Shown here piece after piece: positions 858 to 8,760 of a stretch of 12,257 nt of DNA (within the stretch, counting starts at the first letter, position 1; the number at the start of each line of letters is the position of its first letter). The position numbers and the translations under genes are program-made. The notes beneath the pieces were generated by a model, which was not told where the DNA came from, made no database searches, and saw only the letters and a list, made by a program, of their open reading frames with translations. The DNA comes from a virus. The DNA lies in the UHGV virus genome UHGV-0107510, one strand, 5' to 3'.

Positions 858-937
858 CCTGGCCTGAGGCATTCGTAACGGTAGGAGTTGCAATGGCGGT
901 AGCGCTGGTGGTTTATTCGATTTGCCGCTGGGGTTGA
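854..937 (+). CDS. 27-aa hydrophobic peptide (MTWPEAFVTVGVAMAVALVVYSICRWG), possibly translationally coupled
   Basis: Its ATG overlaps the stop of the preceding ORF in an ATGA arrangement (854-857). One hydrophobic helix-length segment. Too short to judge by composition; included only because of the coupling geometry. Confidence 0.2.
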   Translation: MTWPEAFVTVGVAMAVALVVYSICRWG

Positions 938-1021
938 CGTAATTACTAATCCGGGGCTATATTCACCGCACGGTCGAGTTGACCGTCGGGATTGAGACCC
1001 CGGATAGAAACCGCGACAGAC

Positions 1022-1044
1022 ACACGCCGCGAGCGTGTTTTTTA
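1022..1044 (+). terminator. Rho-independent terminator candidate
   Basis: Stem ACACGC (1022-1027) / GCGTGT (1033-1038) with a 5-nt loop, followed by TTTTTT (1039-1044). Confidence 0.5.
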
Positions 1045-1204
1045 TTGTCGTATGCACGCGCACATCTGAATTATGGTGGGGCGTATAGGGGAGCTGAAAA
1101 GCTCGCCGGTTGGTTTCCCGGTAGTCTCAACCCTGTACGTCTCACCACCCGACGATTGAGACCTGACGGTGGTGATAGTTTAGAAACCACCCTAGGGTGT
1201 CGTT

Positions 1205-1753
1205 ATGACTACTCAAATCTCTGTTGAAACTCTTGTTGCTATTACTTACAACCAAATCCCTGTAATTACCACTGAGTTGTTGGCGCATCTTTATGGTGCA
1301 GACGTTAAGAATATTCAAAACAACTTTGCAAGGAATGTAGGGCGCTTTCAGATTGGAAAACACTTTTTTAAGATCGAAGGTGAAGAGTTACGTGAATTGA
1401 AGCACAGACCATCTTTAAGTGGGTCTGTGAAAATCGCCCGTAACGTTCGTTCCCTCATCCTCTGGACAGAACGCGGAGCAGCCCGTCATGCAAAAATGCT
1501 CGAAACCGATCAGGCGTGGGAAGTATTCGAAAAACTCGAAGACAGTTACTTCAACCAGTACGAGAAAGAGCGGACTATGGGAAAAATGAATATCGATTTT
1601 CACCTGGCGATCCGTGACGATAAAACCGCCTTCATCCGAAGTTATGCGCCTGGCGAGCTGGTGACGGTTGAAGAAGCCCTGGCTTTGCTTAAATCGCGCG
1701 GATGGCTGGTAATGCCACGAGATGAACTGGCCGGAAAATTAATGGAGCTTTAA
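1205..1753 (+). CDS. Phage antirepressor-like protein (ORF6N-type N-terminal domain)
   Basis: 182-aa ORF with AGGGTG Shine-Dalgarno 5 nt upstream of the ATG. The N-terminal 80 aa (…NQIPVITTELLAHLYGADVKNIQNNFARNVGRFQIGKHFFKIEGEELRELK…) matches what I recall of the ORF6N/antirepressor family. Confidence 0.75.
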   Translation: MTTQISVETLVAITYNQIPVITTELLAHLYGADVKNIQNNFARNVGRFQIGKHFFKIEGEELRELKHRPSLSGSVKIARNVRSLILWTERGAARHAKMLETDQAWEVFEKLEDSYFNQYEKERTMGKMNIDFHLAIRDDKTAFIRSYAPGELVTVEEALALLKSRGWLVMPRDELAGKLMEL

Positions 1754-7393: not shown

Positions 7394-7469
7394 GGCCCTT
7401 TAGCTCAGTGGTGAGAGCGAGCGACTCATAATCGCCAGGTCGCTGGTTCAAATCCAGCAAGGGCCACCA
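7394..7469 (+). tRNA. ileZ: tRNA-Ile (anticodon CAU, ileX-like; formally could be tRNA-Met)
   Basis: 76 nt with full cloverleaf: acceptor GGCCCTT/AAGGGCC, anticodon loop CTCATAA (CAT at 7427-7429), T-loop TTCAAAT, encoded CCA. Closely resembles E. coli tRNA-Ile2 (ileX) as I recall it. Gene names follow the ileZ-argN-argO trio described upstream of stx in Stx phages. Confidence 0.85.
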
Positions 7470-7478
7470 TATCACATA

Positions 7479-7555
7479 CCGCCATTAGCTCATCGGGATA
7501 GAGCGCCAGCCTTCGAAGCTGGCTGCGCGGGGTTCGAGTCCTCGATGGCGGTCCA
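7479..7555 (+). tRNA. argN: tRNA-Arg (anticodon UCG)
   Basis: 77 nt: acceptor CCGCCAT/ATGGCGG, D-stem GCTC/GAGC, anticodon stem CCAGC/GCTGG with loop CTTCGAA (TCG at 7513-7515), T-loop TTCGAGT, discriminator T then CCA. Confidence 0.8.
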
Positions 7556-7568
7556 TTATCAGCATCAT

Positions 7569-7645
7569 GCGTTGTTAGCTCAGCCGGACAGAGCAATTGC
7601 CTTCTAAGCAATCGGTCACTGGTTCGAATCCAGTACAACGCGCCA
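7569..7645 (+). tRNA. argO: tRNA-Arg (anticodon UCU, reads AGA/AGG)
   Basis: 77 nt: acceptor GCGTTGT/ACAACGC, D-stem GCTC/GAGC, anticodon stem ATTGC/GCAAT with loop CTTCTAA (TCT at 7603-7605), T-stem ACTGG/CCAGT, T-loop TTCGAAT, discriminator G then CCA. Confidence 0.85.
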
Positions 7646-8407: not shown

Positions 8408-8647
8408 CAGGGTATCAGTTACCCGTTGAAATTTTTAAATACCTCACAATTCAGGCGGTTGACTGTTGTCTGGTTTGCGGGGAGTTTGTTAAAAGAAACT
8501 GGCATGGTGAATCCCCCTGTGCGGAGGGGCAATCAGCAACTGGTGTTTTGTCACCGACCCTTATCCTTTCTGTGCGGGTTCAGGTGCTGATACTGAACTC
8601 ACCGGGAGGCACCCGGCACCATGCAATGGCACATAGCGCCACTCTCC

Positions 8648-8674
8648 AGCCCCTCTCCGGAGGGGCTTTCTTGT
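8648..8674 (+). terminator. Intrinsic terminator candidate
   Basis: Perfect 8-bp stem AGCCCCTC / GAGGGGCT with loop TCCG, followed by a T-rich tail TTCTTGT. Confidence 0.5.
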
Positions 8675-8678
8675 GGGC

Positions 8679-8705
8679 AAAAAAAAAGCCCGAGTGGGTT
8701 CGGGC
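8679..8705 (-). terminator. Minus-strand intrinsic terminator
   Basis: On the + strand, A9 (8679-8687) is followed by hairpin GCCCGA-GTGGGT-TCGGGC (8688-8705). Read on the minus strand this is a GC hairpin followed by U9. No T-run follows on the + strand. Confidence 0.5.
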
Positions 8706-8760
8706 AACAGCATGAGATATACATTTTTATAATCGAATGGATTTTAACCAGAATTCATAA

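Follow-up and report, generated by a model that had tools for sequence, protein, structure and literature searches.

The window analysed here is the whole 12,257-nucleotide (nt) stretch of the virus genome UHGV-0107510, and its region at positions 934-1210, which leads into an antirepressor-like gene (ant), is very probably an immI-like RNA immunity module of a lambdoid Escherichia coli prophage in which a C4-type antisense RNA governs ant. As judged from sequence comparison, the homologues of this module are c4-icd-ant of phages P1 and P7 and isrK-orf45-anrP of the Salmonella prophage Gifsy-1. Its family membership, fold, complementarities, geometry and covariation are demonstrated in the present analysis. 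Much about systems of this kind is known already: Rfam has curated entries for both RNA families involved, the paradigm goes back to 1990, and experiments have dissected a collinear relative, that of Gifsy-1. New to the locus described here are its own pair of specificity sequences (a' and b'), the absence of orf45 coupling and the absence of icd. A preliminary description of this DNA had read the ant leader as a set of mutually exclusive hairpins that might form a riboregulatory switch. What looked like ‘hairpins’ are recognition sequences and leader targets of a small antisense RNA whose kind is known, and they do not constitute a new riboswitch.

An Rfam scan of the whole window at curated thresholds placed a C4 antisense RNA (RF01695) on the plus strand at positions 1069-1152, with a match that spans the full model (1-87) and, at 70.5 bits (E=2e-12), exceeds the cutoff of 45. 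The minimum-energy fold of the nucleotides from 1075 to 1149 is that of the family consensus (-43.7 kcal/mol, z=-6.7, 87% of the ensemble), and this fold is kept when the whole transcript from 970 to 1215 is folded. The same nucleotides have a shape that, in the predicted fold, is like that of an RNase P substrate, with an acceptor-like stem and an ACC tail. ARAGORN found no tRNA at 1069-1152, and a match to mir-3132 in the scan (22 bits against a cutoff of 84) was dismissed as chance. The elements of the locus are collected in Table 1.

Table 1. Elements of the ant control region, numbered by position in the window
Element	Position	Strand	Basis or remark
Sigma-70-like promoter, TTGACG-18 nt-TATATT	934-963	+	predicted; corresponds to the isrK promoter and to P1c4/P2c4 of P1
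IsrK-like leader RNA, two hairpins and intrinsic terminator 1022-1044	970-1043	+	RF01394
a1, TTGAGAC, loop of second IsrK hairpin, complementary to a'	992-998	+	sequence complementarity
b1, GAAACC, complementary to b'	1007-1012	+	sequence complementarity
28-codon frame from the conserved AUG at the C4 5' end; truncated orf45 counterpart	1073-1159	+	stop TGA 1157-1159 inside a2
Predicted mature C4-like RNA, 75 nt	1075-1149	+	RF01695 match and fold; ends transferred from the annotated 77-nt P1 C4
C4 closing stem, 16 base pairs	1075-1090 with 1131-1146	+	
C4 hairpin 1	1091-1104	+	
C4 hairpin 2	1105-1122	+	
b', TGGTTTC, hairpin 2 loop	1111-1117	+	perfect complement of 1183-1189 and 1007-1012
C4 single-stranded junction, 8 nt	1123-1130	+	
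a', GTCTCAA, single-stranded junction; left arm of repeat 1	1124-1130	+	complement of 1156-1162 and 992-998
C4 3' tail, ACC	1147-1149	+	
a2, TTGAGAC, 7 nt past the C4 3' end; right arm of repeat 1	1156-1162	+	position as in annotated P1 a2
Box, GGTGGTGA, between a2 and b2	1168-1175	+	complement of the last 8 nt of C4, TCACCACC, 1142-1149 (repeat 2)
Leader hairpin (repeat 3), 5' arm in the box	1168-1173 / 1186-1191	+	in the minimum-energy fold; covers half of b2
b2, GAAACCA	1183-1189	+	4 nt 5' of the Shine-Dalgarno sequence AGGGTG (1194-1199), 15 nt 5' of the ATG
ant, 182-amino-acid ORF6N-domain antirepressor-like protein, regulated gene	1205-1753	+	Pfam PF10543, 69.2 bits

Three sets of loci were used for comparison: 80 viral-contig loci encoding Ant homologues; a set made up of P1, P7, D6, SJ46, 673R5, JL22, APSE-7, VT2-Sakai, phi24B, phiP27, ST64B, a Klebsiella phage, a Yersinia phage and Gifsy-1; and 80 further loci with one genome per species. 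Forty distinct units, drawn from prophages and phages, were aligned with MAFFT and are the basis of the 40-unit counts given below. The closing stem is 99.8% paired across these units, with 9 of its 16 pairs changed on both sides, and all five pairs of hairpin 1 have likewise changed on both sides. The covariation score observed for the C4 RNA was reached by none of 500 shuffles. At the 5' edge of the RNA (window 1073-1075 region) the sequence AUGG is invariant in all 40 aligned units, whereas the frame opened by this AUG is not conserved; the invariance of AUGG is more likely due to RNase P cleavage or to the closing stem than to coding. One Chromatium unit, L154, carries AAAGG in its place.

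The sequence between 1091 and 1204 is unusually rich in inverted repeats. Perfect seeds of at least 7 nt number four against 0.43 +/- 0.87 expected (P=0.014, 2000 dinucleotide shuffles), 6-nt seeds number nine against 1.64 expected (P=0.0015, dinucleotide shuffles), and the RNA from 1045 to 1230 folds with a z-score of -3.46. The preliminary description had listed three repeats, and each lies where it was placed: repeat 1, GTCTCAA 1124-1130 with TTGAGAC 1156-1162; repeat 2, CACCACC 1143-1149 with GGTGGTG 1168-1174, which extends to the 8 nt of TCACCACC 1142-1149 and GGTGGTGA 1168-1175; and repeat 3, GGTGG 1168-1172 with CCACC 1187-1191, which extends to 6 nt as GGTGGT 1168-1173 and ACCACC 1186-1191. 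Absent from that list were a fourth pair of 7-mers recovered by the seed scan, TGGTTTC 1111-1117 with GAAACCA 1183-1189, and the upstream target copies TTGAGAC 992-998 and GAAACC 1007-1012. Repeats 1 and 2 are not mutually nested, and they would therefore form a pseudoknot if both were made in cis. Both are missing from the predicted minimum-energy fold of the transcript, in which 1075-1149 forms a very stable three-way junction. In place of two exclusive hairpins in cis, repeat 1 and the fourth pair are the a'/a2 and b'/b2 pairs of a C4-type RNA, as indicated by the Rfam match, the P1-like spacing and the covariation across the 40 units.

The recognition sequences and their targets change together. 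Six of the seven a'/a2 pairs have changed on both sides, and a1 tracks a' in every one of the 40 units, while b1 matches b' over at least 6 nt in 33 of them. The lengths of complementary runs were also compared between cognate and non-cognate pairs, a test that is independent of alignment columns. The a' sequence occurs in 16 types among the 40 units, with a mean complementary run of 7.05 nt to its own leader versus 4.41 nt to the leaders of others. For b', which occurs in 27 types, the corresponding means are 7.5 and 4.63 nt. The types of a' and b' assort independently, and the P1 group alone combines two types of a' with four of b' in several ways. In APSE-7 and two further units (L010 and L025) b2 overlaps the Shine-Dalgarno sequence, and in the Yersinia phage it overlaps the AUG itself.

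Upstream of the C4 RNA, the same scan identified an IsrK RNA (RF01394) at 970-1043 with 52.4 bits against a cutoff of 50. It is overlapped by a match at 957-1006 to RF03163 (c4-a1b1, ‘a1, b1 targets of C4’), which at 27.1 bits lies below its cutoff of 46.7. A terminator scan confirmed that a terminator-like hairpin with a T-run exists at 1022-1044. This hairpin had been taken to isolate the ant unit; instead, it ends the IsrK-like RNA that carries a1 and b1, and it lies inside the operon, with the sole promoter-like site found on either strand between 600 and 2400 located upstream of it (934-963). Both promoter hexamers and the terminator are conserved in the alignment with Gifsy-1, and a1 corresponds to the Gifsy-1 positions G28 and G31 that were tested by mutation.

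The likeness to P1 and P7 extends beyond the shared Rfam family and the three-way-junction fold ending in ...CCACC. The GenBank entry for P1 lists a1, b1, a 77-nt C4 RNA, a2, b2 and icd as features, and in the P1 sequence a' (CTGTCAA) lies in the junction and b' (TCACTAAC) in the loop of hairpin 2, as GTCTCAA and TGGTTTC do here; the P1 C4 RNA starts at GG after TTAT and ends in CCACC. In both systems a1 and b1 are upstream and a2 and b2 downstream of the RNA on one transcript, b2 lies by the ribosome-binding site of the first downstream gene (it abuts the icd site in P1), and an antirepressor is the final target. The spacing is also similar, with starts of a1 and b1 that are 15 nt apart here and 14 in P1, starts of a2 and b2 that are 27 nt apart here and 29 in P1, and an a2 that begins 7 nt past C4 here and 4 nt past it in P1. 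Moreover, a' and b' vary independently with matching targets within the P1 group, where P1, P7, D6, SJ46, 673R5 and JL22 carry different combinations. However, the start of ant is 55 nt past the C4 3' end, and the intervening stretch contains no icd-like open reading frame (ORF). The antirepressor here is an ORF6N protein and not P1 Ant1/2, a C1 operator is neither annotated nor evident, and the host element is an integrated lambdoid prophage and not a plasmid prophage. The a1/b1 segment of the present locus also ends in its own intrinsic terminator, and thus it resembles a small RNA (sRNA) of the IsrK type.

The Gifsy-1 locus is collinear with the window from the -35 hexamer to the start codon, with 86% column identity and with differences that cluster at a1, b1, b', a', a2 and b2. 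Both loci, situated in the late-regulatory region of a lambdoid prophage, comprise an IsrK RNA with its terminator, a C4-like RNA (processed STnc1160 in Gifsy-1) and an ORF6N protein of the AnrP type. The antirepressor-like character that had been assigned to the gene is borne out by its Pfam domain and by its product, which RefSeq names an ORF6N domain-containing protein and which is 60% identical to Gifsy-1 AnrP over 186 amino acids (E=7e-74). The recognition sequences are distinct, with a' reading GTCTCAA here and ACGCCAA in Gifsy-1, and b' reading TGGTTTC here and CGGTGAT there. The orf45 frame has 28 codons here and does not overlap the ant start, and the locus follows replication and DUF1627 genes where that of Gifsy-1 follows antQ.

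When the Gifsy-1 transcript is numbered from its first nucleotide, the published mutations can be placed on this architecture. G28 and G31 belong to a1 and C159 and C162 to a', while A107 is the A of the AUG at the C4 5' end and G114/C175 is a pair of the closing stem. Transcription of anrP depends on the upstream isrK promoter, and the transcript is untranslated (Hershko-Shalev et al. 2016, PMC4825925). Translation of anrP increases more than 100-fold when a' is mutated and likewise more than 100-fold when IsrK is provided in trans, an effect that a1 mutants of IsrK lack, and a processed RNA, STnc1160, accumulates from the C4 region (PMC4825925). These results fit a C4-type repressor that is titrated by IsrK. 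The idea that a1 and b1 act as decoys is credited to Citron and Schuster 1990 in the supplement of Weinberg 2010, from which we take the attribution.

Further parallels are found in three other systems. The APSE-7 record carries an independent annotation of the same arrangement, with an isrK RNA, a C4 RNA and putative a' and b' regions located 5' of a BRO-N gene. The CI RNA of satellite phage P4 is a processed, same-strand RNA with target copies (seqA and seqC) on both sides, and it has been called structurally homologous to IsrK (PMC4825925); it differs in causing premature transcription termination of replication genes and not a block of antirepressor translation, and we liken the two by description and not by sequence. 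The sar RNA of P22 (RF00262), the phage whose ant the preliminary description had cited as an example of antisense or attenuation control, is likewise a small RNA directed against a phage antirepressor, whose translation it blocks. However, the sar gene lies on the opposite strand and its transcription crosses the ribosome-binding site of ant, whereas the regulator here is encoded on the same strand as its target, 5' of it, and pairs with it by means of two short segments that lie apart. The P22-like arrangement is not borne out at this locus, where RF00262 gave no match between 850 and 1350 even at E<=1 and no promoter-like site was found on the minus strand between 600 and 2400.

Based on these comparisons, we propose a mechanism in which the single promoter would start a transcript near position 970, most copies of which would end at the intrinsic terminator and yield a short IsrK-like RNA with a1 in a hairpin loop followed by b1. 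Read-through RNA would hold the tRNA-like three-way junction, and, by analogy with P1, a cut by RNase P before G1075 and 3' trimming to ...ACC would free a C4-type RNA of ~75 nt. Its b' sequence in the hairpin 2 loop and its a' sequence in the junction would pair with b2 and a2 on the ant leader and fill the landing zone of the 30S subunit just 5' of the Shine-Dalgarno sequence, leaving ant untranslated in lysogeny. The IsrK-like RNA, with the same targets in a1 and b1, would titrate the antisense RNA and thereby turn ant on. The sequences a' and b' would be the specificity determinants, which differ among related prophages with all targets changing along. For processing, for repression and for the action of the IsrK-like RNA as a decoy, P1 and Gifsy-1 serve as the models, and the P1 annotation and the Gifsy-1 a' mutants suggest that repression would act in trans with a'/b' specificity.

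Several observations weigh against this proposal. The mature ends at 1075 and 1149 are carried over from P1. P1 works through icd translation and Rho-dependent polarity, and there is no icd here. The b2 target stops 4 nt short of the Shine-Dalgarno sequence instead of covering it. In the predicted fold of the excised leader, the Shine-Dalgarno sequence and its spacer are already paired, and therefore antisense binding could act in a manner that goes beyond simple occlusion. In Gifsy-1, a1 mutations in cis raise expression 20- to 50-fold, which a pure decoy does not predict, and the authors of that study invoke cis pairing of a1 with a' plus orf45 coupling through a frame that is truncated here (PMC4825925).

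The last of these points concerns a complete alternative. In the published Gifsy-1 mechanism, a long transcript is locked by cis pairing of a1 and b1 with a' and b', IsrK opens it in trans, and translation of the small ORF is coupled to that of ant. The collinearity of the two loci and an AUG at the C4 5' end that all 40 aligned units share speak for the same mechanism here, as do the compensatory mutations that support a1/a' pairing and the orf45 stop codons that lower activation in Gifsy-1 (PMC4825925). Even so, we consider it rather unlikely for the present locus. The frame in the window stops after 28 codons, 45 nt 5' of the ant ATG, and thus the stop/start overlap of the Gifsy-1 type is missing. 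The length of the orf45-like frame varies across the 40 units from 8 to 41 codons, with some frames running on, and 30 units have its stop more than 3 nt before the ant ATG. Given that the frame stops inside a2 here and has variable ends in these 30 units, coupling can be neither the general mechanism nor able to act in the Gifsy-1 manner at this locus. Also, folding of the window transcript is predicted to preserve the C4 structure and not the a1/a' pairing, and the mechanism leaves the conserved a2 and b2 without a role. Because the position of its stop varies, we rejected orf45 as a conserved coding gene, and the frame at 1073-1159 is probably not one.

Repeat 2 requires separate treatment, since it joins the 3' end of the C4 RNA to a segment of the leader that we call the box. 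The TCACCACC arm comprises five closing-stem positions and the ACC tail, and its duplex with the box in the window has an energy of -14.1 kcal/mol (z=-4.8). Among enterobacterial units, both arms are near-invariant and are 92.5% paired by column with little covariation. The exact-run cognate test was non-discriminating for this pair because the box hardly varies among these units. Duplex energies were used instead with a wider set of 58 distinct units, including Chromatium, Thiorhodococcus and metagenome-assembled genomes. The duplex of the last 10 nt of C4 with the leader beats 95% of shuffled leaders in 51 of the 58 units, the target site is always at leader positions 12-22, and the mean energy is -13.6 kcal/mol for cognate versus -10.3 for non-cognate combinations. 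Examples of C4 3' ends and their boxes are TCGCCACC with GGTGGCGA (L010, L027 and phi24B), CCGCCACC with GGTGGCGG (L102), GTCACCGC with GCGGTGGC (L108), GATCGCCGCC with GGCAGCGGTC (L157, one mismatch), CTGYCG with CGGCRG (the Chromatium loci) and CCTGCCACC with GGTAGCAGG (P1, 8 of 9 paired). Units with an sRNA-Xcc1 in place of C4 have a short covarying hairpin directly after the closing stem, such as GCCACT...AGTGGC or ACCACT...AGTGGT. The possibility that the box is a Shine-Dalgarno-like ribosome standby site was considered because GGTGGTGAT resembles GGAGGTGAT. We set it aside because the divergent boxes GGTAGCAGG, GGCAGCGGTC and CGGCAG are unlike a Shine-Dalgarno sequence and yet match their own C4 3' ends.

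We tentatively suggest that C4-type systems use this C4 3' end/box pairing as a third conserved interaction besides a'/a2 and b'/b2, although we regard the odds as running against it. With similar reserve, one could envisage a chain of three exclusive helices, namely the closing stem, the C4 3' end with the box (leaving a2 in an 18-nt loop), and the box with the translation start region. The middle helix is missing from the predicted minimum-energy fold of the window transcript, and its formation would require the end of the closing stem to open. If formed, it would put a2 in a loop in a manner that resembles a1 in the IsrK hairpin loop. In the accessible literature we found no description of the pairing, and a single remark, in the supplement of Weinberg 2010, may touch on it: in some cases a predicted terminator hairpin shares sequence with the 3' half of the closing stem of C4, for which a role in cis is raised as a possibility. 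If the proposal is true, the chain could link excision or docking of the antisense RNA to the accessibility of the ant start site, and the conserved pairing is in any case a concrete new element for testing.

The third helix of such a chain is less well defined than the second. By alignment column, the specific hairpin of repeat 3 is paired in 52% of cells across the 40 units, and its register varies across the family. Because MAFFT aligns the variable b2 region unreliably and puts the P1 group in the wrong place, column counting was replaced by per-sequence folding with shuffle controls. When excised leaders are folded, the box pairs downstream, either with b2 or with the stretch from the Shine-Dalgarno sequence to the AUG, in 36 of the 40 folds versus 26.8 expected, and this pairing reaches P<=0.05 in 17 of the 40 units versus ~2 expected. 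These predictions point to a moderate tendency and not to a defined helix. The expectation that the paired segments would covary across homologues held for repeat 1 (a'/a2) and repeat 2, whereas repeat 3 shows a weaker tendency.

These data also bear on the switch originally proposed for the leader, in which GGTGG at 1168-1172 pairs either upstream with CACCACC or downstream with CCACC and sets ant expression without any RNA acting in trans. Both pairings exist in the sequence; the upstream one is conserved and covarying throughout the family, the downstream one has the tendency just described, and the remark on overlapping terminator hairpins would be compatible with a cis role. Nevertheless, we judge a purely cis-acting switch to be improbable. 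CACCACC is the 3' strand and tail of the 16-base-pair closing stem in the dominant C4 fold, and this stem is a third competitor that the two-way scheme had not included. The upstream pairing is absent from both the minimum-energy and the centroid folds of the transcript, the specific downstream hairpin is paired in only about half of the alignment cells, and the a1, b1, a2 and b2 copies with their three-way covariation are left unexplained. An attenuator or riboswitch, which would need a leader terminator and a competing antiterminator, is not supported either: no terminator-like site was found between 1045 and 1205, and the helix of 1142-1149 with 1168-1175 (18-nt loop) is followed by TAGTTTAG with no T-run. 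What stands of the original suggestion is that GGTGG does have two rival partners and that the leader carries RNA-based control of an antirepressor, for which antisense regulation had been named as an option; the cis mechanism put forward for it is unsupported.

The predicted fold of the excised leader shows two further contacts. The 5' flank of a2 (1151-1156) pairs with the spacer before the AUG (1199-1204), and the 3' end of a2 (ACCT, 1161-1164) pairs with AGGG of the Shine-Dalgarno sequence (1194-1197). In leaders of the Gifsy-1 type, the partner of a2 itself is GGCGTCA, located past the Shine-Dalgarno sequence and before the AUG. On these predictions, access to the start site may be blocked also when no antisense RNA is present.

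It is very unlikely that the locus is an inactive remnant, in other words a decayed cassette in a cryptic prophage that controls nothing. There are pseudogenes nearby in the host prophage, and some relatives of the module have decayed. However, the promoter hexamers, the terminator, all stems and the full-length ant ORF are intact in the window, as are the perfect 7-nt matches among a', a1 and a2, the 6- and 7-nt matches of b' and the 8-nt box pairing. The decayed-looking relatives are L056, with a 1-nt deletion in a2 (GATTGCGTC), and L033, with mismatches in b'/b2 and between the C4 3' end and the box (GGTAGTGA). Both could be derepressed or dying copies.

Antisense RNAs are widespread upstream of Ant homologues. 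Among the 80 species-level loci, which come from many genera, 47 have a match to C4 or sRNA-Xcc1 just upstream, and in two a P22-type sar match on the opposite strand is found instead. The sar matches (RF00262) are at 334-405 on the minus strand of L122, from Pectobacterium brasiliense, and at 340-408 on the minus strand of L168, from Xenorhabdus yunnanensis. Given that sar takes the place of C4 or Xcc1 at these loci, one gene family appears under unrelated antisense systems. Outside Escherichia and Salmonella, sRNA-Xcc1 (RF02221) replaces C4 before many ORF6N Ant homologues, at about -120 to -40 relative to the Ant start, in genera that include Serratia, Pectobacterium, Photorhabdus, Xenorhabdus, Arsenophonus and Accumulibacter (L098, L103, L109, L114-L117, L121, L126, L131, L142, L144, L147, L156, L162 and others). 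Inspected by eye, such units show the logic of C4: one loop is the complement of the Shine-Dalgarno region, a segment in the junction has its complement at a site slightly farther downstream, and an NCCA-like tail is covered by a short hairpin that covaries. Xcc1 may thus be an analogue of C4 in function, or else a remote relative.

The region of the locus is identical to a prophage of E. coli strain GE3, and a related stretch is present in 1309 of 5426 complete E. coli genomes. In the window, the locus comes after the replication and DUF1627 genes and before hok/sok. Directly 3' of ant, a sok antitoxin RNA (RF01794, 117 bits) at 1856-2030 on the plus strand overlaps the 5' region of a hokD-type toxin gene at 1968-2180 on the same strand, and the ant/sok neighbourhood also occurs in the Salmonella locus L118. 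On the minus strand at 2283-2991, RefSeq has a helix-turn-helix protein and a split RelE/ParE toxin pair, which would be a second toxin-antitoxin module near hok/sok. Farther along are three tRNA genes at 7394-7645 on the plus strand (Met-CAT, Arg-TCG and Arg-TCT), followed by STnc100 at 8473-8678 on the plus strand (144.5 bits) and by a match to the AsxR ‘anti-stx2’ sRNA at 8683-8735 on the minus strand that scores exactly at its cutoff (63 versus 63). A layout of tRNA genes, STnc100 and AsxR is typical of the late region of a Shiga-toxin phage.

RefSeq has no annotation from the preceding pseudogene to the ORF6N gene, and the region 5' of ORF6N antirepressor genes in E. coli prophages deserves labels for two RNA genes and their target sites. 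The recognition that the IsrK experiments in Gifsy-1 hit the a1 and a' sequences of a C4 system offers a route to reconciling two published models. The many types of a' and b' with matched targets resemble interchangeable immunity specificities. Many homologues are located in Shiga-toxin phages, and the a'/b' types may set cross-repression or cross-induction among co-resident prophages, Shiga-toxin phages included.

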